NCBI GenBank assembly: GCA_016206155.1
Contig: JACQSC010000001.1
Span: 5,105 to 69,104, forward strand
Direction of reading: 5' to 3'
From: Candidatus Uhrbacteria bacterium
GTDB lineage: Bacteria; Patescibacteriota; Patescibacteriia; JACQRZ01
Length of the DNA stretch: 64,000 bases
Position numbers and translations under genes: made by a program. How positions within the stretch are numbered: the stretch's first letter is position 1; every line of letters starts with the position of its first letter. Positions 3,477-42,916 of this stretch are shown here, in pieces. The notes below the pieces were generated by a model. It made no database searches. It had not been told where the DNA came from and saw only the letters and a program-made list of their open reading frames with translations.

Positions 3477-3504
3477 GTTATATGGATTAGGGACTAGTAT
3501 TTAC

Positions 3505-3533
3505 TAACCCCTAACCCCTAACCCCTAACCCCT
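3505..3533. repeat. (CCCCTAA)x3.5 telomere-like heptamer array; G-rich complement could form a G-quadruplex
   Basis: taacccctaacccctaacccctaacccc lies between the convergent/adjacent genes; an inverted TTAGGG partial copy sits at 3487-3492. Confidence 0.8.
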
Positions 3534-22343: not shown

Positions 22344-22571
22344 ATGTATACCTGGGACTACAACCTGCCGAAAAACTGGAAACCGCAGACCCGCGATGAA
22401 TGGGTGTGGTTTCTTGAGCGCAAAATACATTATGATGATTGGAAGGGGGTGCGTCCGTGGATGCTAAAAAAATATGCCCGCGCGCTCAAACTCGATCCGG
22501 CAAAACGGCTCTTTGTTGGCGCATATCTCGATCGCTATGGCAAAAAAATCGCAATTCAAGCTGACCAATGA
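22344..22571 (+). CDS. hypothetical 75-aa protein (possible partner of the downstream nucleotidyltransferase)
   Basis: Trp-rich small ORF overlapping the next gene. Confidence 0.3.
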   Translation: MYTWDYNLPKNWKPQTRDEWVWFLERKIHYDDWKGVRPWMLKKYARALKLDPAKRLFVGAYLDRYGKKIAIQADQ

Positions 22572-23226
22572 GCAGAAAATTATTCTGCAGGTTCTTGCAC
22601 AATCACCGCTCCGCAAGCGCCTCTATTGGACTGGAGGGACGGCGCTTGCGTATTTTTATCTTCACCATCGAGGATCGTACGACGTTGATCTCTTTTCTGA
22701 TACGCAATTGGCTTTGAGCGAACTGTTGCCGTTCGCGCGCGATGCCGCAGAAGCGCTATCGCTCAAAAAGTTTGAACCAAAGAGAATTCACGACCGTTTT
22801 GAGTTTATCTTTACCAATGGGCAGGAGACGCGTCTTGATTGCGTGTGGTATCAATTTCCCGCGCTCAAAAAGCGCAAAGAATGGGAGGGGATTTTGGTTG
22901 ACTCATTTGAGGATATGGTTGCCAATAAAACAATCGCGCTCATGGAACGGCGAGAGGGGAAGGATGTTTTTGATATATACACGCTGTTAAAAAAAAAGCT
23001 GATTACGGTGCCCTCTCTGCTTGAACTGGTAAGAAAAAAATTCGGTGCCGGTATCCACGAGGAAACAATCTTGGCAGACGGGCTTCTTGCATGTAATAAA
23101 CTGAAAAACATTCGGCCAATGCTTTTTGGCTCTGAGAAGGAACAAGAAAAGCAAGTACTTGATGTCGTGAATTTTTTCAAGGATCATGCGGCGCAGCGAC
23201 TTCATTCATTAATTGAAGATCTATGA
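22537..23226 (+). CDS. AbiEii/DUF1814-like nucleotidyltransferase (putative type IV toxin)
   Basis: NTase motif WTGGTALAYFYLHHRGSYDVDLFS. Confidence 0.5.
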   Translation: MAKKSQFKLTNEQKIILQVLAQSPLRKRLYWTGGTALAYFYLHHRGSYDVDLFSDTQLALSELLPFARDAAEALSLKKFEPKRIHDRFEFIFTNGQETRLDCVWYQFPALKKRKEWEGILVDSFEDMVANKTIALMERREGKDVFDIYTLLKKKLITVPSLLELVRKKFGAGIHEETILADGLLACNKLKNIRPMLFGSEKEQEKQVLDVVNFFKDHAAQRLHSLIEDL

Positions 23227-23922: not shown

Positions 23923-24006
23923 AGGGTATAGCGTTTAGGGTACAGGGTATAGGGGGGGGGAATTCTCTTCTAAACCCTAAACCCTAAACCCTAAACCCTA
24001 AACCCT
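23923..24006. repeat. inverted heptamer arrays: G-rich TTTAGGG/AGGGTAYA block followed by (CCCTAAA)x4
   Basis: gggtatagcgtttagggtacagggtataggggggggg ... ctaaaccctaaaccctaaaccctaaaccctg; the two halves are mutually complementary. Confidence 0.8.
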
Positions 24007-26377: not shown

Positions 26378-26609
26378 TGTCACTATATACCACGACTTAC
26401 AGCAGGCGCGGGGGAAACGGTGACTGTCCCCGTTTCTACCCCGTTTCTACGACGGCTTATGGTTGAAAGAGTTATGCACAGCCGTTGCTTCTTGACGCCG
26501 TTTTTATCTGCTATACTGGTGGCATGAGGAAATTTTTCTCTCACATTTTTTATTCATACACACGGTGAAGACGCGTAAGTCTTCATTTTTATTTATGTCA
26601 AGAAACACT

Positions 26610-29600
26610 ATGACAAGAAAAGCGCATGCGTTCGTCTCAAAGGTCCTGTATCCGATAACGATTGCGTCAATGGTTCTGTGGTCCTTGGGTCCGGCGGCGT
26701 TTCCGGTGCCGGCATACGCGGCAATCACCAGAAACGAGGCTGTAGCGCTTGCGACAGGCGCTCAGAGCCTCGGTGTGTCAAGCAGCCCTACGGCGGTTTT
26801 TGGCTTGAACCTTAATATAAGCGCCGGAGAGACATTTTCCCGCGCGCGGGTGGTTATTGATCCAAGCAATAGTTTTGATCCATCAGGAGACCTGGCGGCG
26901 ATTGCGCCCGGCGCCACATCTGGCATTGAGCTATATGACGACGCCGGTGCGACAAGCGGATCATTTGATGCGACCGATCAGGCAATTATCAGCAATAATT
27001 CCATTATTCAGAATCCGCGATTTTCAAAATTAGCGCTTGGCGCCAATATTCTGACACTTGATCCAAACGTTGACACCACCCTTCCCTATATGCAGGGACA
27101 GCTGGTTTTTGCAAACGTGACGGCAAATGCGGCTTCAACAGGGGCTTATGCGTGGCACATCGTGACGGCGAACGGAACGGGAACCGGGGCGGGAACGACA
27201 TTGCGCCTTGACGGGAACACAACCGCCGCGCCGACCTTTTTGGCAAGCTCCCGTCTATCCATGATTGATACGCCTGCGTTTGGGAGCGGTTCGTTTACCA
27301 TTAATGGAACGTCAAACACAACCACCTATGCCTCAACGGCCGCAACCGCGTCGCTTGGTGATATCATTTATTATCAGACAGGTACAACGGCCGGACGCTG
27401 GGGGGTCGTAACTACGAATTTTAATGTAACGGCAGCTTCGGTGAACGGCGCAAATCTTGCGAATGGTACGTACAAAATAGCAAAATTTCCGAGCATTACA
27501 GGTTCATTTGTCGTTCCTGCAAGCGGCAGTTTCACGCCGACTGGTGCATACGGAACGACGACAACGCCCGTTGTCGGTGATCTTGTTCTTTTCCAGCAGG
27601 GAACAGGCGATGCGCGATGGGGCATGGTTACAAACAATACGTTGTCGGGGGGTTCATTTGCCATTAACGGTATGACGCTTGCGGCAGGAACCTATCGGAT
27701 TAGCACCCTTGATACAAGCGGGGGAAACCAAATGGGATTCCAAACCGCGCTCATGAACAACACCTCAATGTCAATGGCGTTGGGCGAACTTTCATTCGTT
27801 TTGACAACACAGAATCCTGCAGCGACTGATTATGGCTGGCACATTACAACTACGGGAGCAACGGGTGTGAGTGGCGCCGGCGCAGGAACGTTGCGGCTTG
27901 ACAATGCAACAGCTGCTCCAACATACGGATGGACCGCATCACTTGTGCCAGATATCGCACAAGCAGTTGCCGCAGATGAGCTCGGCGCGAACGAAGGAAA
28001 TGATTACTTTGTCGCAATCCGAACATCTGCCGGCGCGCAAAATGGACGGGCAGTTCGATTTATCATGAATCCTGGTGATATTGTGTTCAGCGCAAACACG
28101 CCCACCACAACGCCAACGCTTGTTTCCTCGCCGACCTATACTGTCTCGACAACCGCCCAGCAGTCGCAGTCGGCAGGGGCTAACACTACGGTCATGGACA
28201 TGACCAACGGATTTTTGCGACTGAAACAAAGCAGTAATTTTAAGGCAGTTGCGCGTGTTCAGTTTGGCAGTACCGATGCAGCAAAAACCCTGACATCCAT
28301 TGCGATTTCTTTTGCCACTGCAAACAGCACAACGCCGACGTGGACCGCAAGCGCGGCAACATCATCTGAACTCCTTGATCTTGCCGCAACCGGTGGAGGT
28401 ATTTCACTGTGGAAAGACGGCGGATCGCCCGGATTCGGTTTGAATGGCGCAGGCGATACGCAAGTGACACTTGCGGCAAGCCCGGTATATGGCGCAAGCA
28501 ATGCCTTTACCATTACTCCTGCAACAGCGCCGACCATCGCGTCGGATGATGTGTACTTTATCGTACTGAAATCCGATACGTCCGGTGTGACAAACAATAA
28601 TGCGTTTACCGTGAACATGGCAACAAACGCAATTACTACAAGCGGTACATCGCCGACAATCGGCGTATTCTCAACACCGCCGATTGCCATGGATACCACC
28701 GCGCCGACGATTGCAAGCGTATCTGACGTTCCCGGACAATCAACGAAGTTGAGCGTTCGATTCAGCGAGCCGGTGCAGAAAATTAACGCGGCCGGAGCAC
28801 TCACAACAACTGATTTGACCTATACAAATGACGCAACAGACGGATCAGGACGGACCGTGAGCTCGATTTCCCATAATCCGGGCGCGGATATTGCTGAACT
28901 CACCATGAGCGGCGCGCTTGTGGCCGGCGATTTTGACGGAACGCCGTCATCTCTTGCCGCCGGAACAAGTAAGATTGAGGATATGGCGGGCAATGTCATG
29001 GGAACAACAGCGCGCAATCTTGGCAGTCCCCTGATCATTACAACCTCGGTTATTCCTGCGACGTATGTCGGATCGGTCTATGACGCCACAACGCCGCTTG
29101 TCACATTTGCGGCATCCGGCGGAACAGGAGCAAAGACATTTTCAGGAAATACGCAAGCAGATACAGACGCGCTTGTCGCGCTTCTTGGCGCAAGTCCCCT
29201 TGCCGGGGCTACGGGAAAGCTCACGGGTACGGTTCAGCAAAATACCGCAGGAACCAGGAATGTGACGATAAAGGTGACCGATGGCGTAGCCGCAACAGCA
29301 ACAAAACAATTTACGATTAATGTCGCTGCAACGCAAGGAGGCGATGTTCCAGGATTGACAAATGTCACGCCGCCGTCAGGCTCGCAGGGCGCTACAAACC
29401 TATCAGTCGCCATCACCGGCACGAACACAAGCTTTACCAGCGCCAGCGCGGTTGCCTTTCTATTGAATGGAACGGCCGACACCAATATTACAGTCGGAAC
29501 AGTTACCGCAAATAGCGCAACATCCATAACGGTTCCCGTTACAATTGCGGCGGGCGCGGCAACCGGCAGTCGTGATGTGCGCGTGACAACCGGCAATCAA

Positions 29601-32600
29601 GTAGTCATTATGCCAAGCGGATTTAATGTCACCGGCGCGGTCGCGGCAGGGCTCAACCTTGTGTTCCCGACTGATTCGGCAACAGGCATTCAACTGCCCC
29701 AGCCGGGATTTAATTTTAATCCATCAACAAATACCACATTCACTCATTATCGCATTGTATTGAGCGCAACTCAGGATTTTGCAACGGCGCTGTGGAACTA
29801 TGTTTTTCCAAAGCCGGATACGCTTGGCACGAACGGAAGCCATTGCAGTGCGACATCGTGTAATGTGAACTATTCAGCGGGAAATTTTCTCACAATCACT
29901 CCCGCTTCGACGCTCACATCAAATACAACCTACTACTGGAAAGTTGAAACCTATCAGGATCCAACACCGACAACGCAGTTCGCGTCTACGGATGTCATTG
30001 AGCTGAACAGGCGGGAAAACACGCCGGTGCGAAGTTTTACAACCTCGGCTTCTGTGACGGATGTTCAGCCGCCGCAAATAGAACATCGTCCAATTGTTCA
30101 GGCGCGCGCAAACGCGGTAGCTACCGTGTACGCGCGTGTACTAGACAATGTTGCAAACGCGAACACAACGCCTGCCCTTGCCACAACATTGTCTGCCTGT
30201 GCCGGTACCGGATGCACGCCTTCGACATCAACACTGCCAAGCGCAAGCGCGACTGATGGCGTTGTCGCCGGAACGCTTGCGCAGAACGGATACTATAGTT
30301 ATGTTCTTCCCTCCGCGTTTATTACCGCGACTGTCGGAACGGTTGTGCGGTATTATATCACCGCTTCTGACGGTACCAATACGAGCAATTTTTATCAGTC
30401 GGGCGGGACAACGCCGTTTCAGTTCACAACTACGGCGGCTATCGCAACCAGCGGTGTCACGATTACCGGTACGGTAAAAGATACCAGCGATACGTGCGCC
30501 ACCGGCGTGCAGGGCGCGCTTGTGTTTGCCGAAGGGAGCGGGTTCAGCGCGACAACAGGCGCGGACTGCGCCTACACACTGGGTGCGGCAAATAACGGAT
30601 TGGCCGTAGGATTCCCATATGATCTTGTTGTCGCGAGGGATGGATACTCAACCCAGCGGAGAGATGCCGTTTTGGCAGGGTCAACAAGCGTTGCGGTCCA
30701 ACTGGGGCAGGGCGCTACCGGCGGTTTTGGTGGAGATACCACACGGCCCCGTGTACTGCGCTCAATGCCCGGTGACAAGATGCAGAATATGCCAGGAAAT
30801 GATTCAAACATGAGGATTTTGGTTGTGTTTGATAAACCAATGAGCCAGTCGTCGGTATTGACAAACGGCAACATGGTGGTCAATTCCGTGAATGTTCAGA
30901 CAGGGGTTCTTACAAACATTACCCCAAACGGATCATGGGCATATTACTCAACCTATACCATGCCGTTTGGCGGGACAGAATCAAATGTCGCGGTATGGTC
31001 GTTTACCGGCACAAATACATTCGGTGACAACAAGACCATTGCCGTAAAAGTGACGCCGAGTGTTACTGATTCATCAGGGAATGCAGTGCAGGGGAACCTT
31101 ACTGACGGGAGTTATTCGTTTTCGTTCACAACCGGATCAACCGCAACATCCGTTGGTTTTAACACGGCAACCGGAACGTTTGCCGATGGCGGAGTGTTCG
31201 GTCAGGGTCAAAATATCGCGCCGCACGTGACGACCACTGCGCCGTCCATGGGTTCGCCAAGCGTACCGCGCAATACGAAAATCATGATTAATTTCGACAC
31301 CTCAATGGCCGATGATGCCGCTGGTACGTATACGCTTGCAAGCGCGGTGAAGCTGTTTGAGGTGTCCTCGGCAGGCGCCGAAACAGACGTCACATCATCG
31401 GCAATAAACGCCGTCACGCTTACATCTGATAAAATGGCCGCAACTGTTACACTGAAAACAACCTATCCAAGCGCTTGCACAGGCGCGTCCTGTGGCGTGT
31501 TTAAGGCAACCACCCGTTATCGCCTGAAGGTGCTTGGGTCGGCAAAAGCCGCAAATGGCATGACCATGCGCGCCCCGGGACAGGAAACGCAAGTGGCGTT
31601 TATGAGCGACTTTACAACATCCGCGTCATCCGACACGGTCGCGCCAACTATTGTCGGATCTGATCCGACGACGAACGCGACCGACGTTCCCTCGATGCTC
31701 GGGTCTGTGAGCGTGTCATTTGATAAGGATATGGATTCCTCATCGCTTACGACTTCAACGATGACTCTGACGACCGGCTCAACAGCGGTTACTGGAACGG
31801 TTGATTATCGACCGATGGAGCGAACCGCGTATTTTATTCCTTCGCGCGTTTTGACGCCGACAACGCAATACACGCTCACTCTCACTGCGGGGGTTCGAGG
31901 AATCAATGGCACGGCAATTGCGGCGGCAACGCGCGCGTTCACAACCGGATCTGCCGACACGTCCGCGCCTACTGTCACATCACTGACCGCGGATGACACA
32001 AACATCTCAATATCATTCAGCAAACCGATGAACTCATCGCCGGCAACCGATACGACAAACTTTACGTCAAGCGTATTGCGTGTTGCCAGCTACACGGTGA
32101 AATACGGAACAGCAGGGTTCAACGCGGCAACTGCGGGTACAACGCTTACACTTCCAGCAACAGCACAGATTAGCTATGACGGGAAGAACAATTCTGTGAT
32201 GATTTCAGGATACCGCCCGACGAGTACCACTGCGGCACAAGTTCAGGGACAACAATTATATGTTGCGGTTGCAAACGCAAAGGACATCGGCGGCAACGCG
32301 ATTAGCACATCAGGGACTGCTCCGGATACGGCAAATACCAGCCGCGCAACCGTGCAGAATAGCGCGACGACCCAAGGGCAACTTGGGCCGATGACCATTA
32401 CCAATGACATGATGAAGGCGGTTGGTGATTTCAAGCCAATCACATTTTCCTCCGCAACATTCGGATTTGCGCCGCAAACAGAAGTACGACCGTTCAATAT
32501 GATGACCGGCACCACCACAATTTACGGCGTGCATTTGTCTCTCTCACGGCAAATACCGGATGGAGGCGCCATCGTGCTTACCTTCCCGCAAGGGTTTAAT

Positions 32601-35600
32601 GTATCCGGCGCAAAACAGGATATCAACTCTCCGAAACGCCGCGACATAAACGGGCCTGGCACAGGCACGGTCACGTTCAAGTGTCAGACGAACGTCGCGG
32701 GAATGTCGGCGAAATCCTGCGGAGGCGGCGCGGCAAATGCAGATGATACCGGAACCGCGCAAGGCGGCCTTGCCGATGACGGTGTGGTGGTAAACGCCAA
32801 CGCGCGAACCATTACCATTTATGTGAGCGGGGCAACCAATAGCGAAGGACATGATGTTCTTGATTTTGACATCGCGGGCATCGTTAACTCAACCGTTCCA
32901 AAGGACTTCAACACGACCGGCTATACCGTCAGCATCGCGACAAAGAACGGTACGACAAATCTTGAAACACTGAGCTCCGTGCCATTTTTTATCCAGTCGG
33001 CAGGGACTACCACCTATACGCTCACCGGAACGATTACGGCGACAAACAACGATCAAAACGGGACAATATCGGTATTCCTTGACTCGCCGATGACCGGCCC
33101 GCTTGAGGCAACGTCCGCGGATTTTGCCGGCGGGCAAACAGCAACATATTCATTTACCAATCTTCCGCCCGGTGATTATGGATTGAGAACAGAACCGTAC
33201 GTAAAGATTAATGATACGACTGAATTCCTTGGGAAATTTCCTGAGCGTGTGATGATGAGCGCAAACACCGTGCGCAATTTTACGCTCTCAAGCGCAACTG
33301 CCGCAGGCACCGGAACCTCCGTGACCGTTTCCGTAGACGGACCCTCAAGCGAACCCATTGATATTTTCGCAAATGGCCCGGCCGGATTCCGCGTAATGCA
33401 AAAGACGCTTGATACCAATGCCGGCGCTGAAAACTTTACGATTCGCCTGTCAAATGGCGATTGGTTCCTTGGCGTCGGACCGCAAATGCCAAAAGGACAG
33501 ATGTCTGGCCCGCCGCCTTCGCCGAGCTATCTCCCGCCGCGGCCGGTCAATATCCGTATTAACGGCGGTGTATGTACCATTGAGGGAACTGAGACGTGCA
33601 CCAAGGCATTCACGTTGACCGCATCAACAAAACAAATACGTGGCGTTGTAAAGGATCTTGCGAATAAAGTTATTGCAAACGCGGAAGTGTATGCGTATTC
33701 TCCCGCGGGAGCATCAATGGGAAACTTCGCGAAAACAGATACGACAGGAACGTTCATCCTGAACATCACCGAAGGCGTATTTAATGTCGGCGCCATGATT
33801 CAGGGTATGCCGCCTTCAAAAGAAGTGCCGGTTGAGGTAACAAGCCACACTACGACCTATCTCAAGATAGACGGAGCCCAAGCAGCGATTAGGCCTGACG
33901 CGGCCGCGACGGCGTTCGTGTTGAAACTCGCAAAGCCTGATTATACGATTTCGGGAAAAGTGACTGACGGAACAAATGTCATCAATGGAGCGTCAGTGTA
34001 TGCGTATAAGCAGGGGGCGCCGGGACACGCAACGGCTCCGACAGATAGCTCCGGCAATTATTCACTCTTCGTGTCAACGGGTACATGGAAGGTCGGGGTC
34101 TTTTTGCCGAAATACGGAAATCTTACGGAACAGACCGTCACAGTCACAACGGCAAATGCGACTGACATCAATTTCTCACCAACAGGAACCGGAACATTCT
34201 ATGCCGTGTCAGGAACCGTGACTGTTGGCGGCGTTGCCCGAGAGGGGGCGCAGGTGCGTATTAAGAACAGCGGCTATTTTAATGACACACGTACCGATTC
34301 ACTTGGCGCGTACAGTTTTAATGTGCCGCAAGGGACAGGATACATTGTTGACGGATTTGTGCCGGGTGTAGGAGAGCTCGCGCCATTGACGGCATTTGAT
34401 GTTTCAGCAGCAGTTGAGAACAAAAACCTTACGGTCGCGACGTTGCGCACCATCACCATGACATTCTCCTCATCGGTGGCAAATGCGTTTGTTGAACTTC
34501 GCTCAACAACAGGATCAAACATTAGAAAGCAGATAAAGAATTCGACAACCGGAACGCTGTCCGCGCCTGACGGGAGCTATATCGTGAATGTCGATCTTCA
34601 GGGCGCGCCGATTCCGTTTACAGCCGTTGCCGCAACTGACGGAAATACAACATACGCAAGCGCAACGGGCGTTGTGACGGTGAATGGCGATGAGGGCCTT
34701 ACGGTTACAGTTCCCACCCTTCGAGCGCTTACCATTACTGTTCAAGATGGATCAAGTGTGGCACTGGCAGATGCATGGGTTGAACTTATGAATCCGACCA
34801 GCGGTGAACATTTCGGAAGCAAAACAGGAACAAATGGTCAGGCAACACTGCGCGCGGCTGACGGCACATACTTTATTAATGCAATGAAACCGGGGTATTA
34901 CCGTGCGCCGACATCGCTTACGGTGAGCGCGAACGCAGCCCAGACACTTACGCTTACGGCAGCGACACGAACCATAGCAGGAACCGTATATATCGGATCA
35001 ACGGGTGCCGCGAATTCGTTTGTACGCGCCGAAAAGCAGGGTGGCGGGTTTGGCGGAGCAATGACAGACGCAAACGGACAGTATACGCTCTCTGTGGCAG
35101 AAGGAATATGGAGAGTATTCGCAAAAGCTGAAGGATATGCGGAAGCGGAACTGAGCGCCACCGTTGATACAACAACCGCATCGGCGACCGGCAAAGATAT
35201 TACCCTTACTACAACCGTTACGGTGTCAGCGCCTAAGTCAAAGCCGATGACGCCGTCAACCGGCGGCAGTATTGAAGATACATCAGCAGGCATTAAAGTG
35301 AATGTGCCGGCAAACGCGCTTGGCAGTTCATCGTCAGCCGGAAACATGCAGGTAAAGAAAACAACGAACTTTACCAAAACAGAAACCGCGCGACCGGTCG
35401 CGGCAGTAGAGATTAGCGCGACTGACGCAAATGGCACGCCGATCAAAACATTGACAGAAAGCGTAACAGTTGAATTGAGTTACACAAAAGCAGAACTCGC
35501 GACAACAGCATCCTCTTCAGATACATCCATTAATACAAAGTCAGAAATTGAAAAACTCGATGTTGGGTTCTGGGATGAATCGGTATCAAACTGGACGACC

Positions 35601-37775
35601 TTGCCAACTACGACTACATATGTGGATTCAGCCGGTGCGGTTGTTACAAGTCCGTCAGAAGATCTTTCAAATGTCGCAAGTGTGAAATTAAGCGCGCTTA
35701 CCGATCACTTCTCCTTGTTCGCGCCGGTAGTCCCGACCGATCCGTCAGCGCCATCAACGCCAACAAACTTCGCGACAGGCACGGCGACAACAACAACGAT
35801 TGTCCTTGGGTGGTCCGTCGTATCCGGCGCGACCGGCTATAACATCTACCGGAGCACAAGCTCGACAGGAACATTTAGCCGCCTTGGTTCAGAGCCAACG
35901 GTTTCTAGCGGTTCGACTGGCACGTATACTGACAGCGGACTGTCCGCGAGTCAAACGTTCTACTACAAGATTTCTGCGTTGAACAATAACGGCGAATCTG
36001 CCGCGTCTAGCGCCCTGTCCGCAACATCAGCCGCCACAACGTCATCGAGTACAAGCTCTGGGGGTGTTGTCTCAAGTTCGAGCTCTTCCTCACAAACGAC
36101 AACCACCACCACGACAGCAACAGCCATTACCGCAACAAATGTCTCTGTTACCAACACAAACACGGTTGCCGTGGTGACAAAGGGCATAACAGCAAGCACA
36201 CTGGGTGTTTCGGCGATTAACGCGGCCAACCTTGAGGTAAAGCAAACCGGAGCGGCAACAACGGCAACAACGGAAAAGAAGGATGTCGCGGCGCAGCAGC
36301 TCAAGGACATGAAGAGCGTTGATGCGACCGAGAAAAAAGCTCAAGATGCTTTGGCAACTCTCGAGAGTATGGTCACAAAAGGTACGGTCGCCCCTCTCGC
36401 GCTTTCGCAGAACGTGACACGCTATGAGGTAAAAGAGAAGACAACCGGAAAGACCGCCTCGGTTACGCGCGTCGAACAACTGTTTGCGCCGACAAAGGAC
36501 ACCAAAGATGTTACGATTGTGATGACGGTTCCAAAGTCAGTGGCAGAGCGCGCTTCATTGCTTACGTTCACGGGTGTTCAGCCGGAAGTTTTGCAGGATG
36601 ATCCCATCCTTCGCTGGACCTTTGCTGAAGTAAAGGCAGGAGAAACAAAGGATTTGTCCTATCAGGCAAACAAAAATCTTGAGAAGCTTGAAGTAAAGAA
36701 TGTCGCCGTCGCCGCAGTGCCAGCATTCGTAGAGATGGCATGGGGCTTCAAGGATGGCAAATTCCAACTGATGCCAAAGACCGAAGCCGATGCCTTGCAT
36801 GCAGCGGCTGAAGCATCCGCCGCCGCTAAAGCTCCGGCGAGAGAAGAGAAGAAAGCTGAAGTTTCCCTTGAGAAAAAAGCCGCAGCCATGCCGGCAAAAG
36901 CGGCAGCGAAGCCGCTGGTAGCGGTAAAAGCACTGCCACATCTTTCGGCGAAGGCGGCAAAAGTTGTGACCAACGTACTAAAGCGCAGCGCTATCATTCT
37001 TCTGCCTGAGGCAAAGGGAGCGGCCTATTATCTCGACCCAAAGACGCAAAAACGGGCATCCCTCGGCCGTCCTGCAGAGGCATTTGAGGTGATGCGTTCG
37101 TTCGGAATCGGTATCACAAATAATGACCTTGAAAAGATTCCGGAAAGCACCAAAGAGGGCGATACGGCATTCGCCTGTAAGCACGCCGGTAAGATTTTCT
37201 TGCAAGTCCAGGCAAAAGGCGAGGCATGGTATGTGCATCCCGAGAATTGCAAGCGCTACTTCCTCAATCGTCCGGCCGATGCCTTTAATCTCATGCGCAA
37301 GCTTGCGCTTGGTGTCTCCAATGCGGACGCAGACGCGATTCCGACAAGCGAGAAGTCAAAACCGGTAACGCCTGCTACACCGGCGCAACCCGCACAGCCA
37401 AAAGAAGATCCAAAGAAGGCATCAGACAAACTTTCGCCCCTCGCGCGTCCATTGTATAGCGGCATGAAAGGGGATGATGTCAAAACGCTTCAGACCATTC
37501 TTACGCAGAAGGGATACTATACCGGTACAGTTTCTGGCACTATGGACGAGGCAACTTTTACAGCGGTGCGCCAGATGCAGTTAAAAGAGGGTCTGGTGAA
37601 GAGTGTGGCTACTCCCGGGTATGGCACCGTCGGTCCAGCAACTCGCGCATTTGTCAACAAGCTCTTACAAGTGGAGCCCGAACCGAAAAAGGAAACAACT
37701 CCAGCTGCGCCGAAGCAAAGCGAAGGCGAGGGTGAAAGCGCGCTTGATAAGCTCAAGCGACTTATGAAACAGTAA
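26610..37775 (+). CDS. giant (~3.7 k aa) secreted cell-surface protein with Ig-like/SbsA-like, carboxypeptidase-regulatory-like and FN3 domains, a Ser/Thr linker, two GEAWY repeats and a C-terminal PG_binding_1 domain
   Basis: Signal peptide MTRKAHAFVSKVLYPITIASMVLWSLGPAAFPVPAYA; repeated ..APTI.S..P..GATDV blocks; four GxV.D...A..GA.V-type beta-sandwich repeats; FN3 motif (W..V.GATGYNIYRS); C-terminal LYSGMKGDDVKTLQTILTQKGYY..DEATFTAVRQMQ. Start taken at the third in-frame ATG; the annotated 5' end overlaps a hairpin. Confidence 0.85.
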   Translation: MTRKAHAFVSKVLYPITIASMVLWSLGPAAFPVPAYAAITRNEAVALATGAQSLGVSSSPTAVFGLNLNISAGETFSRARVVIDPSNSFDPSGDLAAIAPGATSGIELYDDAGATSGSFDATDQAIISNNSIIQNPRFSKLALGANILTLDPNVDTTLPYMQGQLVFANVTANAASTGAYAWHIVTANGTGTGAGTTLRLDGNTTAAPTFLASSRLSMIDTPAFGSGSFTINGTSNTTTYASTAATASLGDIIYYQTGTTAGRWGVVTTNFNVTAASVNGANLANGTYKIAKFPSITGSFVVPASGSFTPTGAYGTTTTPVVGDLVLFQQGTGDARWGMVTNNTLSGGSFAINGMTLAAGTYRISTLDTSGGNQMGFQTALMNNTSMSMALGELSFVLTTQNPAATDYGWHITTTGATGVSGAGAGTLRLDNATAAPTYGWTASLVPDIAQAVAADELGANEGNDYFVAIRTSAGAQNGRAVRFIMNPGDIVFSANTPTTTPTLVSSPTYTVSTTAQQSQSAGANTTVMDMTNGFLRLKQSSNFKAVARVQFGSTDAAKTLTSIAISFATANSTTPTWTASAATSSELLDLAATGGGISLWKDGGSPGFGLNGAGDTQVTLAASPVYGASNAFTITPATAPTIASDDVYFIVLKSDTSGVTNNNAFTVNMATNAITTSGTSPTIGVFSTPPIAMDTTAPTIASVSDVPGQSTKLSVRFSEPVQKINAAGALTTTDLTYTNDATDGSGRTVSSISHNPGADIAELTMSGALVAGDFDGTPSSLAAGTSKIEDMAGNVMGTTARNLGSPLIITTSVIPATYVGSVYDATTPLVTFAASGGTGAKTFSGNTQADTDALVALLGASPLAGATGKLTGTVQQNTAGTRNVTIKVTDGVAATATKQFTINVAATQGGDVPGLTNVTPPSGSQGATNLSVAITGTNTSFTSASAVAFLLNGTADTNITVGTVTANSATSITVPVTIAAGAATGSRDVRVTTGNQVVIMPSGFNVTGAVAAGLNLVFPTDSATGIQLPQPGFNFNPSTNTTFTHYRIVLSATQDFATALWNYVFPKPDTLGTNGSHCSATSCNVNYSAGNFLTITPASTLTSNTTYYWKVETYQDPTPTTQFASTDVIELNRRENTPVRSFTTSASVTDVQPPQIEHRPIVQARANAVATVYARVLDNVANANTTPALATTLSACAGTGCTPSTSTLPSASATDGVVAGTLAQNGYYSYVLPSAFITATVGTVVRYYITASDGTNTSNFYQSGGTTPFQFTTTAAIATSGVTITGTVKDTSDTCATGVQGALVFAEGSGFSATTGADCAYTLGAANNGLAVGFPYDLVVARDGYSTQRRDAVLAGSTSVAVQLGQGATGGFGGDTTRPRVLRSMPGDKMQNMPGNDSNMRILVVFDKPMSQSSVLTNGNMVVNSVNVQTGVLTNITPNGSWAYYSTYTMPFGGTESNVAVWSFTGTNTFGDNKTIAVKVTPSVTDSSGNAVQGNLTDGSYSFSFTTGSTATSVGFNTATGTFADGGVFGQGQNIAPHVTTTAPSMGSPSVPRNTKIMINFDTSMADDAAGTYTLASAVKLFEVSSAGAETDVTSSAINAVTLTSDKMAATVTLKTTYPSACTGASCGVFKATTRYRLKVLGSAKAANGMTMRAPGQETQVAFMSDFTTSASSDTVAPTIVGSDPTTNATDVPSMLGSVSVSFDKDMDSSSLTTSTMTLTTGSTAVTGTVDYRPMERTAYFIPSRVLTPTTQYTLTLTAGVRGINGTAIAAATRAFTTGSADTSAPTVTSLTADDTNISISFSKPMNSSPATDTTNFTSSVLRVASYTVKYGTAGFNAATAGTTLTLPATAQISYDGKNNSVMISGYRPTSTTAAQVQGQQLYVAVANAKDIGGNAISTSGTAPDTANTSRATVQNSATTQGQLGPMTITNDMMKAVGDFKPITFSSATFGFAPQTEVRPFNMMTGTTTIYGVHLSLSRQIPDGGAIVLTFPQGFNVSGAKQDINSPKRRDINGPGTGTVTFKCQTNVAGMSAKSCGGGAANADDTGTAQGGLADDGVVVNANARTITIYVSGATNSEGHDVLDFDIAGIVNSTVPKDFNTTGYTVSIATKNGTTNLETLSSVPFFIQSAGTTTYTLTGTITATNNDQNGTISVFLDSPMTGPLEATSADFAGGQTATYSFTNLPPGDYGLRTEPYVKINDTTEFLGKFPERVMMSANTVRNFTLSSATAAGTGTSVTVSVDGPSSEPIDIFANGPAGFRVMQKTLDTNAGAENFTIRLSNGDWFLGVGPQMPKGQMSGPPPSPSYLPPRPVNIRINGGVCTIEGTETCTKAFTLTASTKQIRGVVKDLANKVIANAEVYAYSPAGASMGNFAKTDTTGTFILNITEGVFNVGAMIQGMPPSKEVPVEVTSHTTTYLKIDGAQAAIRPDAAATAFVLKLAKPDYTISGKVTDGTNVINGASVYAYKQGAPGHATAPTDSSGNYSLFVSTGTWKVGVFLPKYGNLTEQTVTVTTANATDINFSPTGTGTFYAVSGTVTVGGVAREGAQVRIKNSGYFNDTRTDSLGAYSFNVPQGTGYIVDGFVPGVGELAPLTAFDVSAAVENKNLTVATLRTITMTFSSSVANAFVELRSTTGSNIRKQIKNSTTGTLSAPDGSYIVNVDLQGAPIPFTAVAATDGNTTYASATGVVTVNGDEGLTVTVPTLRALTITVQDGSSVALADAWVELMNPTSGEHFGSKTGTNGQATLRAADGTYFINAMKPGYYRAPTSLTVSANAAQTLTLTAATRTIAGTVYIGSTGAANSFVRAEKQGGGFGGAMTDANGQYTLSVAEGIWRVFAKAEGYAEAELSATVDTTTASATGKDITLTTTVTVSAPKSKPMTPSTGGSIEDTSAGIKVNVPANALGSSSSAGNMQVKKTTNFTKTETARPVAAVEISATDANGTPIKTLTESVTVELSYTKAELATTASSSDTSINTKSEIEKLDVGFWDESVSNWTTLPTTTTYVDSAGAVVTSPSEDLSNVASVKLSALTDHFSLFAPVVPTDPSAPSTPTNFATGTATTTTIVLGWSVVSGATGYNIYRSTSSTGTFSRLGSEPTVSSGSTGTYTDSGLSASQTFYYKISALNNNGESAASSALSATSAATTSSSTSSGGVVSSSSSSSQTTTTTTTATAITATNVSVTNTNTVAVVTKGITASTLGVSAINAANLEVKQTGAATTATTEKKDVAAQQLKDMKSVDATEKKAQDALATLESMVTKGTVAPLALSQNVTRYEVKEKTTGKTASVTRVEQLFAPTKDTKDVTIVMTVPKSVAERASLLTFTGVQPEVLQDDPILRWTFAEVKAGETKDLSYQANKNLEKLEVKNVAVAAVPAFVEMAWGFKDGKFQLMPKTEADALHAAAEASAAAKAPAREEKKAEVSLEKKAAAMPAKAAAKPLVAVKALPHLSAKAAKVVTNVLKRSAIILLPEAKGAAYYLDPKTQKRASLGRPAEAFEVMRSFGIGITNNDLEKIPESTKEGDTAFACKHAGKIFLQVQAKGEAWYVHPENCKRYFLNRPADAFNLMRKLALGVSNADADAIPTSEKSKPVTPATPAQPAQPKEDPKKASDKLSPLARPLYSGMKGDDVKTLQTILTQKGYYTGTVSGTMDEATFTAVRQMQLKEGLVKSVATPGYGTVGPATRAFVNKLLQVEPEPKKETTPAAPKQSEGEGESALDKLKRLMKQ

Positions 37776-37804: not shown

Positions 37805-37847
37805 GGGGTCAGGCACAGATTCGCTTCGCGAAACTGAGCCTGACCCC
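37805..37847. repeat. hairpin with GGGGTCAGG/CCTGACCCC stems (same stem core as the tatD insertion)
   Basis: ggggtcaggc-N23-gcctgacccc. Confidence 0.5.
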
Positions 37848-37856
37848 ACTGAACAA

Positions 37857-37899
37857 ATCAACGGCTAAACCGGTTTAGCCGTTGATTTTTGTTTTGCGA
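37857..37899 (+). terminator. strong intrinsic terminator of the giant gene
   Basis: Perfect 15-bp palindrome atcaacggctaaacc/ggtttagccgttgat followed by ttttgtttt. Confidence 0.75.
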
Positions 37900-37958
37900 G
37901 TGGTATACTAGAACCAACTATAATGTAATGTCTAGATTCCCATAAATTATTCATAGAC

Positions 37959-37992: not shown

Positions 37993-38766
37993 ATGTCATC
38001 CTATTACAAAGGCAAACGATCACGAAACATCTTTGATCCTTTATCTCATGAGCCCTTTAGGGTCTCTCGTTCCAAGATCGAGCTTTTTTCCTCCTGCCCC
38101 CGTTGTTTTTATATCGACGTGCGGCTTGGTGTTGGCCAGCCTCCGGGATTTCCCTTTAATCTCAACTCCGCAGTTGATACTCTTCTTAAAAAAGAGTTTG
38201 ACATACATCGTAGCATGAGCACCGCGCATCCCCTCATGGAGGCGTATGGCCTTGACGCGGTGCCGTTCAGCCACGAGAAAATGGACGAGTGGCGCGATCC
38301 GTTCAAGGGTGTTACGTTTCTCCATGAGCCTACGAATTTTTATGTCACCGGAGGCGTTGATGACGTTTGGCAAAATCCGGAAAAGGAGCTTATCATCGTT
38401 GACTACAAGTCAACAAGTAAGGAAAGCGAGGTAACCATCGATGCGGAGTGGCAGCAATCATACAAGCGCCAGATGGAGATTTATCAGTGGCTCTTTCGCA
38501 ACAACGGTTTCTCCGTATCTGATACGGGGTACTTTGTTTACTGCAACGGCAGGCGCGATGTGGCTGCCTTTGATGGAAAACTTGAATTTGACATTAAGCT
38601 GATTCCCTATACCGGCAGTGACTTGTGGATCGAAAGCGCGCTTGCCAGCATGAAGCAACTACTCATGGCAGATGTGGTCCCTGAACCGGGCGACTGCTGT
38701 GATTTTTGTACCTATCGCCGCGATGCGCGAGAAGTCTTAACGAAACTCGTAACTCGTAACTCGTAA
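37993..38766 (+). CDS. PD-(D/E)XK nuclease, Cas4/RecB-like (solo, no cas neighbours)
   Basis: N-terminal Cys motif (C-X2-C) plus C-terminal CCDFC for an Fe-S cluster; IIVDYKS (D..K) and QMEIY (QhxxY) motifs. Confidence 0.6.
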   Translation: MSSYYKGKRSRNIFDPLSHEPFRVSRSKIELFSSCPRCFYIDVRLGVGQPPGFPFNLNSAVDTLLKKEFDIHRSMSTAHPLMEAYGLDAVPFSHEKMDEWRDPFKGVTFLHEPTNFYVTGGVDDVWQNPEKELIIVDYKSTSKESEVTIDAEWQQSYKRQMEIYQWLFRNNGFSVSDTGYFVYCNGRRDVAAFDGKLEFDIKLIPYTGSDLWIESALASMKQLLMADVVPEPGDCCDFCTYRRDAREVLTKLVTRNS

Positions 38767-38840
38767 CTCGTAACTCGTACAGGGATTGGGAGGCGTCGTT
38801 TTTCCAAATTACAAGTTACGGATTACGAGTTACTGATTAC
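38744..38840. repeat. (CGTAACT)x5 heptamer array followed by inverted AGTTACG copies
   Basis: actcgtaactcgtaactcgtaactcgtaactcgtac ... caagttacggattacgagttactgattac; overlaps the stop codon of the Cas4-like gene. Confidence 0.8.
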
Positions 38841-38846
38841 TATACT

Positions 38847-39848
38847 ATGGTTCTCCTCAAACTCCTCCTCATCTTTTGTTCCCTGGGCGGTTTTTTGCTT
38901 TCGTTGTATATTTTTCATAAAAAGCATCGACACGAAAAAATGTTGTGTCCCATCGGGGGGAAGTGTGAGGCAGTTCTTGCCAGCCAATACAATCGCTTCT
39001 TTGGCATTCCGCTTGAAACCATCGGACTGTTTTATTATGGCGCTGTCTTTATCTTCTCAACCGTGCGCGCGGTTATGGGGGGCGACCCCTTTCCTCTCAT
39101 ATCATTTGCGGTATTCGGCCTGACTATTACGGCATTTTTATTTTCTCTCTATCTCACCTTTATCCAGGCGTTCACGCTCAAGCAATGGTGCACGCTCTGC
39201 CTGACATCCGCCGCTCTGTGCACCATCATTTTTACGAGCACATTCATGACCTCTCAGCAGTCGTTCGTTGCGCTCTTGGGCGCCTACCAACCTCTGGTCA
39301 GCGCATTCTATCTCCTTGCGCTTGCCGTTGGACTTGGATGCGCGACCGTGACTGATGTGTTCTTTTTGAAGTTTCTCCGAGACTATCACATTTCTCAAAG
39401 CGAATATGATGTTCTCTCAACCCTCGCGCAAATGATGTGGGCATCACTCGCGGCGATTATCGTTGCCGGGGTTGGCCTGGCGCTCGGTGCGCCCGATGGA
39501 TACCAACTGCCCCACTCGATGTTCGTAAGCTGGATCGTATTGCTTGTCATTCTCATCAATGCGGCGGTTTTGAATCTTATTGTTGCGCCAAAGCTTCTTC
39601 ATATTTCTTTCCGCGAGAAACATGATCATGAAACGGGAGAGCTTGGCATCATTCACAAGCTTGCGTTTGAGTTGGGCGCCGTGTCTGTTGTTTCATGGTA
39701 TTTCGCCTTTTTTCTTACCGTTATTCCTGATACCGGGTACTCGTTTTTTGCGTTGAGCATATGGTACGGCGTGCTGGTCGTCGTCGGCGTTGCCGTTGGC
39801 CGACTTTTCGAGTATCGCATACGCCAATCTTCAAGAACAGCCGTATGA
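38847..39848 (+). CDS. vitamin K epoxide reductase (VKOR) family membrane protein with a C-terminal membrane extension
   Basis: Loop cysteines CPIGGKC and CTLC active site in a 4-TM core. Confidence 0.6.
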   Translation: MVLLKLLLIFCSLGGFLLSLYIFHKKHRHEKMLCPIGGKCEAVLASQYNRFFGIPLETIGLFYYGAVFIFSTVRAVMGGDPFPLISFAVFGLTITAFLFSLYLTFIQAFTLKQWCTLCLTSAALCTIIFTSTFMTSQQSFVALLGAYQPLVSAFYLLALAVGLGCATVTDVFFLKFLRDYHISQSEYDVLSTLAQMMWASLAAIIVAGVGLALGAPDGYQLPHSMFVSWIVLLVILINAAVLNLIVAPKLLHISFREKHDHETGELGIIHKLAFELGAVSVVSWYFAFFLTVIPDTGYSFFALSIWYGVLVVVGVAVGRLFEYRIRQSSRTAV

Positions 39849-42793
39849 ATGATATTTCAAAGCGCGAAGAAGATGTCTTGAGGTTCTGGGAAGAGCATCA
39901 TATCTTCAGAAAATCAGTTGACCAGCGTCCGGTAGAAAAGCCGTACGTTTTTTATGACGGGCCGCCATTCGCAACCGGTTTGCCGCACTATGGCCACCTC
40001 ATCGCATCGTTGATGAAGGATGTCGTCCCGCGCTACTGGACCATGAAAGGGTATCGGGTCGAGCGCGTATGGGGATGGGACTGTCATGGATTGCCAATTG
40101 AAAATATCATTGAGGAGAAGCTCGGACTCAAAACAAAAAAAGATATTGAAAGTTATGGCATCGATAGATTTAACACCGCTTGCCGTTCAACGGTATTGCA
40201 ATTTGCCGATGAATGGAAAAAAACGATTCGCCGATATGGACGATGGGTTGATATGGAGCGTGCGTATAACACCATGGACCGCTCATATATGGAAAGTGTG
40301 TGGTGGGTATTCTCCGAGCTCTGGAAGAAGGGGCTGATCTATGAGGGGAAAAAGCCCATGCACATCTGTCCGCGCTGCGCAACGCCACTTTCGAACTTTG
40401 AGGTGACCCTTGGTTACAAAGACATCAAGGACATCTCCGCAACCGCAAAGTTTCGATTGACCAACGCGGCAGAGAAGCTCGGACTTTTCGGCGACGTTTT
40501 TTTGTTGGCGTGGACAACGACCCCCTGGACACTGCCGGGTAATGTGCTCTTGGCGGTAGGAAGAGAAATTGACTATGGCATATTCAAAAATGGCCAAGGC
40601 GAACATATCATCTTGGCAAAAAATGCCTTGGACCATTACCAATCATTCGCCGGAAAAGACTATAGATATGTCAAAACCGTCAAAGGCGAAGGATTGGTCG
40701 GGTTGAACTACGAGCCGCTTTTTCCTTATTATACAAACAGTGTGCGTGCCTTTCGTGTCGTGGCTGGTGATTTTGTAACGACAGATGAAGGAACTGGCGT
40801 GGTGCACATTGCGCCGGCGTTTGGCGAGGACGACTTTGCGATTGCCGAGAAAGAATGTACCGGATTCATCCAGCATGTGACACTCGAGGGGACGTTCGTA
40901 CCCGAGGTGAGTGATTTTGCCGGCATGCCGGTCAAGCCAAAGGAAGATCCGACGCGCGCCGATGTTGAAATTATAAAATATCTTGCAAAACATGGCAGGC
41001 TTTTTGCAAAAGAAAAAATAGAACACAGCTATCCCCATTGTTGGCGGTGCGATACGCCCCTGCTCAATTACGCAACAAGCAGTTGGTTTGTGCGGGTAAC
41101 GGAGCTGAAAAAAGATCTCTTGACAGCCAACAAACAGACATCATGGGTTCCAGAACACATGAAGGATGGAAGGTTCGGCAAATGGCTTGCCGGCGCGCGT
41201 GACTGGGCGATTTCCCGCAACCGCTACTGGGGAACGCCATTGCCAATGTGGAGAAGCCAGGACGGCGAGGTGGTCTGTGTTGGAAGCGCGCGCGAGCTTG
41301 AGGAGCTTTCCGGGCATGCTATCGACGATCTTCACAAGGATGCGGTTGATGCTATCACATTTGAAAAAGACGGAAAGCTGTTTATGCGCATCCCCGATGT
41401 GCTCGATTGCTGGTTCGAGTCAGGATCGATGCCGTACGGACAAATGCACTATCCTTTTGAGAATAAGGAAAAATTCGAGCAGGGATTTCCCGCTGAGTTC
41501 ATCGCCGAAGGGCAAGATCAGACGCGTGGCTGGTTCTACACCCTGCATGTGCTTGCGGTTGCGCTGACGCGCGGAAAACAGCCATCGATTCCGCTGCGCG
41601 GCCCACTGCCGGCATTCAGGCACGTCATCGTTAACGGCATTGTGTTGGCTCAGGATGGCAAGAAGATGTCAAAAAAACTAAAAAATTATCCAGACCCTAT
41701 GGAGGTCATATCGAGATACGGCGCAGACGCCATGCGGTTCTATCTTGCCGCATCGCCTGCCATGCATGCGGAGAATTTGAATTTTTCCGAAGGTGGCGTT
41801 CGCGAGATGTATAATAAATGCGTCAATACCGTATGGAATATCGCGCAATTTTATACAATGTTTGCATCATTTCCTCACGCGCGGCTCGATCCGCGGGCAT
41901 TCCCCCATATTCTTGATCGCTGGATTCTTTCGCGCCTGCACAATACGCTCAAAAAAGTAACCACACATCTCAATGCCTACGAACTTGCGCAGAGCACGCG
42001 GCCGCTGCTGGAGTTTATTAGCGACTGCTCGCAGTGGTATGTGCGCCGTTCGCGCGAACGGTTTAAGGGTGAGATGTCAGAGGATCGCGGACAGGCGCTT
42101 GCAACATTACGCGAGGTCTTGTGCGTGCTTTCTAAGATCATTGCGCCGTTTACGCCATTTTTGGCTGAAGCGATACATCAAGGGTTAAGGGTTCAGGGTT
42201 CAGGGTTCAGCAAGGTGGAGTCTGTGCATTTAGAGCAATGGCCCGACTGGGACAATGCGTTTATCGACGAGAATCTCGAACGTGATATTGAGGATGCGCG
42301 CAGCATTGTCGAGATTGCGCACGCCCTTCGCGCGGAGGCGAACATGAAGGTGCGTCAGCCGCTTTCAACGCTCGTGTGTTCACAGCCGTTGCCGCGCGCT
42401 TTTCTGGATATGATTGCTGAGGAAGTAAATGTCAGAGAGGTTGTTGTAAAACCCAACCCAAAAGGAGGGGAGGGGTGGCATCTCAGGAGCGAAAAGAACC
42501 TGGCCGTTGCGCTGAACACAACCCTGACCGCAGAACTTGAAGAAGAGGGGGTGGTGCGCGAGATGATCCGCACCGTGAATGCATTGCGAAAAAAACGTGG
42601 ACTGACGATCCATGACATGGTTTCGTTTTGCTATTATACCGACGATCCGCGCCTTACAGATCTCATCGATCGCCATAGAGAAAAAATCGCAAAAAGTATT
42701 TTAGCAGAATCGCTTCGGTTGAAAAAAACAGCGTCAATGGATGAGCTGTCTGTGGGCGATCAAAAGGTTTTCATTTCCTTGAGTGTGACATGA
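39845..42793 (+). CDS. ileS: isoleucine--tRNA ligase (type 2, no C-terminal zinc finger)
   Basis: PPFATGLPHYGH (HIGH), GWDCHGLPIE, KMSKKLKN (KMSKS); start at ATG 39845, overlapping the upstream stop by ATGA. Confidence 0.9.
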   Translation: MNDISKREEDVLRFWEEHHIFRKSVDQRPVEKPYVFYDGPPFATGLPHYGHLIASLMKDVVPRYWTMKGYRVERVWGWDCHGLPIENIIEEKLGLKTKKDIESYGIDRFNTACRSTVLQFADEWKKTIRRYGRWVDMERAYNTMDRSYMESVWWVFSELWKKGLIYEGKKPMHICPRCATPLSNFEVTLGYKDIKDISATAKFRLTNAAEKLGLFGDVFLLAWTTTPWTLPGNVLLAVGREIDYGIFKNGQGEHIILAKNALDHYQSFAGKDYRYVKTVKGEGLVGLNYEPLFPYYTNSVRAFRVVAGDFVTTDEGTGVVHIAPAFGEDDFAIAEKECTGFIQHVTLEGTFVPEVSDFAGMPVKPKEDPTRADVEIIKYLAKHGRLFAKEKIEHSYPHCWRCDTPLLNYATSSWFVRVTELKKDLLTANKQTSWVPEHMKDGRFGKWLAGARDWAISRNRYWGTPLPMWRSQDGEVVCVGSARELEELSGHAIDDLHKDAVDAITFEKDGKLFMRIPDVLDCWFESGSMPYGQMHYPFENKEKFEQGFPAEFIAEGQDQTRGWFYTLHVLAVALTRGKQPSIPLRGPLPAFRHVIVNGIVLAQDGKKMSKKLKNYPDPMEVISRYGADAMRFYLAASPAMHAENLNFSEGGVREMYNKCVNTVWNIAQFYTMFASFPHARLDPRAFPHILDRWILSRLHNTLKKVTTHLNAYELAQSTRPLLEFISDCSQWYVRRSRERFKGEMSEDRGQALATLREVLCVLSKIIAPFTPFLAEAIHQGLRVQGSGFSKVESVHLEQWPDWDNAFIDENLERDIEDARSIVEIAHALRAEANMKVRQPLSTLVCSQPLPRAFLDMIAEEVNVREVVVKPNPKGGEGWHLRSEKNLAVALNTTLTAELEEEGVVREMIRTVNALRKKRGLTIHDMVSFCYYTDDPRLTDLIDRHREKIAKSILAESLRLKKTASMDELSVGDQKVFISLSVT
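42181..42210. repeat. in-frame G-quadruplex-type repeat GGGTTAAGGGTTCAGGGTTCAGGGTTCAG inside ileS
   Basis: Four GGG tracts with 4-nt spacers; encodes GLRVQGSGFS. Confidence 0.7.
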
Positions 42794-42883: not shown

Positions 42884-42916
42884 AACCCCTAACCCCAAAC
42901 CCCAAACCCCAAACCT
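42884..42916. repeat. C-rich heptamer array (CCCCTAA/CCCCAAA variants) downstream of ileS
   Basis: taacccctaaccccaaaccccaaaccccaaacc. Confidence 0.8.

Follow-up and report, generated by a model that had tools for sequence, protein, structure and literature searches.

A stand-alone Cas4-like PD-(D/E)XK nuclease with a 2+2 cysteine arrangement, highly conserved in Patescibacteria

A 64,000-nucleotide stretch of a Candidatus Uhrbacteria contig (JACQSC010000001.1; hereafter the window) encodes a 257-residue protein of the PD-(D/E)XK superfamily whose family is nearly ubiquitous in Patescibacteria and exceptionally constrained. An earlier note on this DNA had described the protein as a solo Cas4-like nuclease with an iron-sulfur (Fe-S) arrangement of cysteines and had linked it to anti-phage defence or DNA repair. 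The observation was confirmed; the interpretation proved partly right. The protein is of a known kind, a solo Cas4-like PD-(D/E)XK nuclease that has already been deposited under a generic annotation: it is 100% identical to [quoted passage not shown] from a 125-kb contig. On balance, we consider it probable that the nuclease is a vertically inherited housekeeping enzyme, stand-alone and metal-dependent, that processes DNA ends or single-stranded DNA (ssDNA). A role in defence is unlikely, and a gene called "solo Cas4" on its motifs alone should not be mistaken for a defence gene.

The open reading frame (ORF) begins with an ATG, and 28 of 29 aligned homologues share the same initial Met-Ser. 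All of the motifs listed for it previously, CPRC, CCDFC, DYK and QMEIY, are present. Conservation was evaluated in an alignment of close homologues (A1), in a diverse alignment (A2), and in 82 diverse representatives of 50% clusters. In these representatives, D123 and K139 are invariant (82/82 each). The residue at position 124 is Asp in 78 and Glu in four, and that at position 137 is likewise Asp in 78 and Glu in the other four. The Gln and Tyr of the QhxxY motif are kept in 80 and 81 of the 82, respectively. Overall, conservation of the catalytic residues is 98-100% across this set. The protein carries the D...(D/E)-x-K signature on a restriction-endonuclease-like alpha/beta core, and QhxxY lies downstream of (D/E)xK, as in the RecB-family/Cas4-like clade. 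The predicted catalytic centre comprises D123, D137-x-K139 and Q160-xxx-Y164, with E68 as a likely further ligand. No second copy of the family was found in the window, where the gene is single-copy.

Profile searches, which might have assigned the protein to a non-nuclease family, placed it in a nuclease family, Pfam PF12705 (PDDEXK_1), with 47.3 bits against a gathering cut-off of 22 (E = 3.3e-12). The proposed membership of the Cas4/RecB-family nucleases held in that the motifs are intact and PF12705 matches; scores for the curated Cas4 models, by contrast, were below their thresholds, at 15.6 bits against 22.7 for PF01930 and 31.8 bits against 65 for TIGR00372. Cas4 profiles align with the protein end to end but weakly; the PADLOC model PDLC01447, for example, spans residues 23-242 with 31.9 bits. 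Some homologues are named Cas4 by IMG, and some have a precomputed PF01930 match. No curated model specific to the family was found in the Pfam and NCBIfam scans, no Pfam match was obtained between the query and PF11074 (DUF2779), and a literature search found no paper on this particular family. Matches to GH48 cellulases were discarded: those in Pfam and NCBIfam are due to a short common peptide, YKRQxExYQWL, and those among Protein Data Bank (PDB) sequences are at chance level. The PDB sequence match to SSO0001 was marginal.

The AlphaFold2 model of the nuclease (pLDDT 86) matched the folds of the Cas4 in a Cas4-Cas1 fusion (score 12.3), the Dna2 nuclease (11.5), a type I-C Cas4 (11.1), the nuclease fused to DinG (10.8), AdnA (10.7), RecE (10.6), the Cas4 protein SSO0001 (10.6), MGME1 (10.5), Exo5 (9.8) and lambda exonuclease (9.2). 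Foldseek agreed with this list. Because the folds of Cas4, Dna2, AdnA, RecE, MGME1 and Exo5 all match, the nuclease, as modelled, belongs to the RecB/Cas4-like exonuclease branch without a single nearest relative.

Four cysteines are conserved, C35, C38, C236 and C239, and their arrangement is 2+2 (C35-x2-C38 ... C236-x2-C239). All four are invariant in A1, C35 and C38 are at least 90% conserved in A2, and the complete set occurs in 69 of the 82 representatives. The claim of a Cas4-like cysteine set thus stood as to the number of conserved cysteines but not as to their arrangement or the "CC" of CCDFC (C235, C236 and C239; nucleotides 38695-38709), of which only one cysteine is conserved: C235 (codon 38695-38697) is peculiar to the query sequence in both A1 and A2. 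In Cas4 and AddB the arrangement is 1+3 (C ... C-x2-C-x5-C), and this arrangement is absent from the nuclease. Indeed, at positions 240-248, where the third C-terminal cysteine of a 1+3 set would be expected, cysteine is never among the five commonest residues of the 82 representatives.

The four cysteines probably form one metal site that pins the N- and C-terminal helices together. One family member (P0235) has lost all four at once, which fits a single shared site. Most likely, the site holds an Fe-S cluster that corresponds to the "iron staple" of Cas4, AddB and Dna2; one cysteine ligand appears to have left the C-terminal segment for the N-terminal one. The four conserved cysteines of Cas4 bind Fe-S (PMC5704561, PMC13621843, PMC12501428). 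A second, unrelated-looking PDDEXK_1 protein of ~285 residues, with 1+3 cysteines, is encoded one to three genes downstream of a family member in four loci (L004/L005, 7499-8365; L007, ORF 8), and no such paralogue was found in the window. In an hhalign comparison with this paralogue, which covered the N-terminal motif only and had a probability of 39.5%, C35 fell on its lone N-terminal cysteine (CPEHF) and C38 on its histidine.

Compared with Cas4 (DUF83/PF01930, COG1468), the nuclease shares the PD-(D/E)XK core, including D...(D/E)xK and QhxxY, and has four cysteines that bridge the N- and C-terminal segments, a similar size (~200-260 residues) and, like solo-Cas4, a stand-alone gene. It differs in its sub-threshold scores against the curated models, in its 2+2 rather than 1+3 cysteines, in the absence of cas1, cas2 and CRISPR arrays near family members in 83 loci, and in being far more conserved, the Cas4 proteins of the literature being of low mutual similarity. 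By description, the protein would fit the solo-Cas4 of a 2017 survey: a pfam12705 protein with catalytic motifs and four cysteines, encoded away from cas loci. That survey reported solo-Cas4 of unknown function in numerous candidate phyla radiation (CPR) genomes without CRISPR (Hudaiberdiev et al. 2017, PMC5704561) and found that it evolves mostly vertically, under ordinary purifying selection (PMC5704561). Biochemistry on solo-Cas4 was found in our literature search for the Methanosarcina mazei enzyme only, which binds a [4Fe-4S] cluster and is a Mn/Mg-dependent DNA nuclease with a preference for supercoiled double-stranded DNA; mutants of its cysteines lost the cluster and kept the activity (PMC12501428).

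Other members of the clade differ from the nuclease in architecture or sequence. In AddB/AdnA/RecB and Dna2 the "iron-staple" nuclease domain is joined to a helicase or translocase module in one protein, whereas the query is a bare nuclease domain. The superfamily-1 helicase that is fused or co-encoded in AddB, RecB, AdnAB and Dna2 was found neither in the protein nor beside it, there being no helicase cluster among the recurrent neighbours of the 83 loci. Human MGME1, Exo5, RecE and lambda exonuclease are stand-alone 5'-3' exonucleases of the same clade; they share 7-14% identity with the nuclease, their N-terminal region is different, and HMMER searches against PDB sequences detected no homology to it. 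A further parallel is MMSYN1_0389, a DUF2779-type protein that is quasi-essential in JCVI-syn3.0 (PMC13621843). Like the nuclease, it is a Cas4-like lineage with an altered cysteine complement that is kept without CRISPR, in its case in a minimal genome, and one relative of the nuclease family (P0178) is fused to a DUF2779 module; unlike the nuclease, it belongs to a separate family, is fused to a DEDD nuclease and has kept only two cysteines.

The family is large and concentrated in Patescibacteria. A word-indexed search returned at least 8000 homologues, the best 120 of which are 64-85% identical to the query. With one genome per GTDB species, more than 600 stretches carried the nuclease pattern and 545 of them were confirmed, so at least 545 species genomes contain the gene. 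The best 80 stretches came from Uhr-, Wildermuth-, Taylor-, Moran-, Levy-, Falkow-, Nomura-, Yanofsky-, Jorgensen-, Woyke-, Andersen- and Kerfeldbacteria and from metagenome-assembled genomes labelled "Paceibacterota" or "Patescibacteria group"; a Magasanikbacteria homologue was present among the homology-search matches. Labels such as "uncultured Gammaproteobacteria" or "archaeon" on some homologues are probably mis-assignments. An exhaustive profile search of 1.84 billion 50%-cluster representatives yielded 2503 clusters at E <= 1e-3 and 447 at E <= 1e-30. Among the more distant members (36-48% identity) are sequences from marine Chloroflexota and from Tara Oceans.

In A1, 73 of the 257 columns are invariant and a further 44 are at least 90% conserved, ~45% in all; the most strongly conserved stretch is N-terminal, at residues 20-82. 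We compared this conservation with that of neighbouring genes in identical genome pairs, using the 80 loci that best matched the query. The median identity of the nuclease was 68% against 63% for YchF, 71% against 63% for cyclophilin, 64% against 44.5% for TGT, and 76% against 50.5% for the DHH phosphoesterase. Within these pairs the nuclease thus exceeds universal housekeeping proteins in conservation, which fits a housekeeping role. Its pairwise identity correlates with that of the neighbouring cyclophilin (rho 0.73), and the gene appears to be vertically inherited. Identity is ~65% both within and between named lineages, which suggests an invariant core together with saturated variable sites.

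The genomic context looks like that of a chromosomal housekeeping gene rather than of a CRISPR or defence locus. A surface-protein gene lies immediately upstream, and VKOR and then IleRS lie downstream. As had been stated, the window contains no CRISPR array and no cas genes: neither the window nor any of 86 related loci showed a CRISPR-like array when searched, and Pfam scans of 41 window ORFs detected no cas gene. When 1056 ORFs of the 83 loci were clustered, no neighbour was common to more than nine loci. The recurrent neighbours are of housekeeping type and, read from example sequences, appear to be cyclophilin, YchF, a DHH phosphoesterase, DUF192, TGT and a UMP-kinase-like protein; Pfam tables of the related loci independently give DUF192, TGT, AA_kinase and a YchF-type GTPase.

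These data bear on the proposal that the protein is an anti-phage or anti-plasmid nuclease, a solo Cas4 that, like ACE1 with Argonaute, constitutes or assists some uncharacterised system of immunity. The 2017 survey named defence as one possibility (PMC5704561), the closest profile and structure matches include Cas4 and the Argonaute-associated Cas4-family ACE1, and one rare relative (P0158) is fused to TIR and GYF domains. Two genes of the window are toxin- or defence-like, the remainder being housekeeping: an AbiEii-type nucleotidyltransferase toxin gene ~15 kb upstream of the nuclease and, ~24 kb downstream, a single ORF in which a Pol-beta-type nucleotidyltransferase is fused to a HepT-like RNase (MNT-HEPN). 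Against this, no defence gene adjoins the nuclease, there is no defence island around it, and no defence partner recurs in the 83 loci. PADLOC-DB gave only weak matches to Cas4 models (<=32 bits), with no partner genes nearby and no system. Finally, defence genes typically evolve fast and patchily; the phylum-wide identity of ~65%, above that of YchF in matched genome pairs, is the reverse of this. The earlier suggestion of anti-phage defence therefore found little support here, and we regard it as quite unlikely.

The favoured reading is a role in DNA metabolism. As a member of the RecB/Cas4-like branch, the nuclease would be a stand-alone protein of the cytoplasm that cuts DNA in a metal-dependent manner. 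Its likeliest job, we infer, would be the processing of DNA ends or ssDNA through 5'-3' resection or trimming, in the service of recombinational repair or DNA turnover and acting without CRISPR. The neighbourhoods contain weak hints in this direction: AP endonuclease 2 and UDG are encoded near the nuclease in L001-L003; in marine Chloroflexota (L086, 2528-4253) the gene for the DNA recombination protein RmuC is convergent with that of the nuclease, with an 8-nucleotide overlap; and in the window uvrB, uvrA and uvrC lie consecutively downstream, starting 9.4 kb from the nuclease.

Several points weigh against the reading of a vertically inherited enzyme of DNA-end processing with an Fe-S site. 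No conserved operon accompanies the gene, so the pathway is assigned by analogy. CxxC...CxxC is also a classic zinc or rubredoxin-type pattern, and for this reason the cysteine site may bind Zn rather than Fe-S. The choice of the best 80 loci inflates the identity of the nuclease in the same-pair comparison, and the equal identity within and between lineages would also fit horizontal spread inside the phylum. HMMER searches of PDB sequences, with the single sequence and with the family profile, detected no solved structure. For Southlakia (Saccharibacteria), the one genetically tractable relative considered, the annotation table in a transposon-sequencing supplement gives only an AddA-like PF12705 protein. 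The supplements of a paper on CPR protein families contain no entry for Cas4, PDDEXK or RecB (PMC6744442), and a literature search on recombination genes of the CPR yielded nothing of use.

Fusions and neighbours suggested a different substrate flow, in which the nuclease would degrade imported or damaged DNA to oligonucleotides that phosphoesterases convert to nucleotides, in hosts that lack de novo synthesis. A 392-residue protein in which the nuclease is fused to a NUDIX domain (P0124) occurs on two independent metagenome contigs (L093, 794-1972; L094, 11-1189). Single examples of fusion to HD_4 (P0160), TIR plus GYF (P0158) and DUF2779 (P0178) were also found, and L001 has an HD_4 gene close to that of the nuclease. 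A DHH/DHHA1 protein, putatively NrnA-like, is encoded two genes upstream in five loci and nearby in eight of the 83. Patescibacteria, moreover, have been described as naturally competent and incapable of nucleotide synthesis. However, fusions are rare: of ten long proteins scanned, four had a second domain, and few of 150 listed representatives far exceed the ~255-position profile. The eight DHH loci carry closely related nucleases (median identity 76%) and so probably represent one lineage, and the invariance or near-invariance of ~45% of the columns is not what one would expect of an enzyme of bulk degradation. Scavenging is a reasonable sub-hypothesis, drawn from the NUDIX and HD fusions and from the DHH neighbour in one lineage; as an explanation in its own right, it seems unlikely.

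The marked conservation of the N-terminal 60 residues could alternatively reflect an RNA substrate, the protein being an RNA-processing nuclease or a 5'-end-dependent nuclease that acts on a conserved cellular RNA. Very high conservation would be typical of enzymes that read conserved RNAs, and some loci encode an RsmE-type methyltransferase, TGT or an RRM protein nearby. Each RNA-related neighbour is confined to seven or fewer of the 83 loci, however, and scans of the window for tRNA genes and Rfam families revealed no RNA gene. We hold such a role to be improbable.

Nor did the data favour a chromosomally resident gene of a mobile element or phage, for instance one for a phage recombination exonuclease. 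The fold is common to many phage Cas4-like exonucleases, PHROG 31195 (function unknown) matches the query end to end (E = 1.2e-12), and a 39% identical relative (P0251; L092, 5001-5765) lies in a phage-like setting of many small ORFs on one strand, along with a DNA methylase and DUF1376. The BFVD fold matches, on the other hand, are generic phage Cas4-like exonucleases of at most 21% identity, and a tblastn search of 50,697 phage records gave no match to the nuclease. The surroundings in the window are housekeeping genes, with no integrase or phage genes seen around the nuclease, and the at least 545 species that carry the gene do so in varied chromosomal contexts. A phage origin is accordingly very improbable.

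More tentatively, and with considerably less confidence than in the housekeeping role proposed above, the family may represent an uncharacterised core enzyme of Patescibacteria that is among the most conserved proteins of the phylum, has a rewired 2+2 cysteine cluster site, and performs an essential, specific role unlike those of the described Cas4- and RecB-like nucleases. In such a role it may be the main nuclease for DNA-end resection in lineages without RecBCD or AddAB, or a nuclease inside the cell that connects the uptake of DNA with the supply of nucleotides. Were it essential, it would close a gap in our picture of DNA-end processing or DNA recycling in these reduced genomes. The 2+2 cysteine site and the very high phylum-wide conservation are underappreciated features of the family, which is noteworthy for work on Patescibacteria as a small nuclease whose cysteine ligand set is unlike the iron staple of Cas4 and AddB.

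The nuclease gene and the other features of the window are listed below.

Table 1. Features in the 64-kb window. Positions are those of the window; empty cells, no entry.
Feature	Position	Strand	Remarks
Stand-alone PD-(D/E)XK (Cas4/RecB-like) nuclease gene	37993..38766	+	257 residues
N-terminal cysteine pair C35-P-R-C38 (CPRC)	38095..38106	+	half of predicted four-cysteine metal/Fe-S site
D123-D124 (GGVDDVW)	38359..38364	+	predicted catalytic acidic motif II; conservation among 82 representatives
D137-Y138-K139	38401..38409	+	(D/E)xK catalytic motif III; D137 and K139 invariant in A1
Q160-M-E-I-Y164	38470..38484	+	QhxxY motif of RecB-family nucleases; family conservation
C-terminal cysteine pair C236-D-F-C239	38698..38709	+	second half of four-cysteine site
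Heptamer array (AACTCGT)	38744..38779	+	5.1 copies, perfect, 100% matches; TRF
Degenerate inverted heptamer copy	38810..38840	+	3' arm of intergenic hairpin; inverted repeat I1
Second hairpin, ahead of terminator-like palindrome	37805-37847		
Terminator-like palindrome and T-run, closing giant gene	37855..37898	+	perfect 17-nucleotide palindrome at 37855-37888
Promoter-like TTGATT-16-TATACT	37882..37909	+	TG before second hexamer; consensus scan, pattern match only
Period-7 array CTAACCC	3504-3533		4.3 copies
Period-7 array CTAAACC	23970-24006		5.3 copies
Period-7 array AGGGTTC	42181-42210		4.3 copies
Period-7 array AACCCCA	42884-42915		4.6 copies
ThyX-like ORF	9283-10920		545 residues
AbiEii-type nucleotidyltransferase toxin gene	22474-23226		
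Giant ORF	26565-37775		3736 residues
uvrB	48174-50186		
uvrA	50251-53055		
uvrC	53236-54912		
MNT-HEPN fusion ORF	62397-63263		

The giant ORF upstream has an N-terminal hydrophobic segment and many repeats rich in Thr, Ser and Ala, and we read it as a surface protein; two hairpins close the gene. Its adjacency to the nuclease, to which attention had been drawn, appears incidental. The terminator-like palindrome with its T-run, the second hairpin and the promoter-like site, ~84 nucleotides upstream of the nuclease ATG, lie between the two genes, and no such neighbour recurs in the other loci; a functional link was therefore rejected.

The 3' end of the nuclease gene was found to derive from a CGTAACT heptamer array, as the earlier note had it: the array at 38744, whose unit, AACTCGT, is a cyclic permutation of CGTAACT, supplies the final six codons (L V T R N S) together with the TAA stop (38764-38766). 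Since each unit contains a TAA, every one of the three frames meets a stop within the array, and a change in copy number would alter only the last few residues of the nuclease. The array is not a property of this gene in particular, being one of five near-perfect period-7 arrays in the window, mostly at gene ends or intergenic; a specific association with the nuclease was accordingly rejected. A search of the window for at least three perfect copies recovered all five of these arrays and none of period 5, 6, 8 or 9, and there were no heptamer arrays of at least four perfect copies in ~884 kb of related Patescibacteria loci. The 14-mer CTCGTAACTCGTAA was matched five times in the window, where chance alone would give 0.19. 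The unit of the array at 23970, CTAAACC, corresponds by cyclic permutation to CCCTAAA, the telomere unit of the plant type.

The array at 38744 also forms the 5' arm of the hairpin I1 (38749-38840), which has 31-nucleotide arms that are 81% complementary and 30 nucleotides apart. Its predicted RNA fold has an energy of -36.6 kcal/mol (z = -2.95). The hairpin follows the nuclease stop and ends six nucleotides ahead of the VKOR ATG (38847). In the closest relative (L089), whose protein is 82% identical, the array has ~3.9 copies with one mismatch and encodes the same LVTRNS tail; there, the VKOR homologue begins eight nucleotides after the nuclease stop, and the inverted arm and spacer are absent. 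Inverted degenerate copies of the unit also precede the arrays at 3504 and 23970 (3464-3533 and 23930-24006; GGGATTAGG / GGATTAGGG, GTTTAGGGT / ACAGGGT), and these arrays, like that at 38744, may each form the perfect arm of an imperfect hairpin. By eye, both end 0-3 nucleotides before the start codon of the next ORF.

Two other ORFs of the window warrant comment. The mechanical ileS ORF begins 88 nucleotides inside the VKOR ORF (39761-39848). Read by eye, the homology-like N-terminus (MNDISKREEDVL...) begins at ~39845, with a 4-nucleotide overlap (ATGA) with the VKOR stop, and this is probably the true start of ileS. The ThyX-like ORF is approximately twice the usual size; its best Thy1 match covers residues 323-513, and hmmscan gives a second matched stretch.

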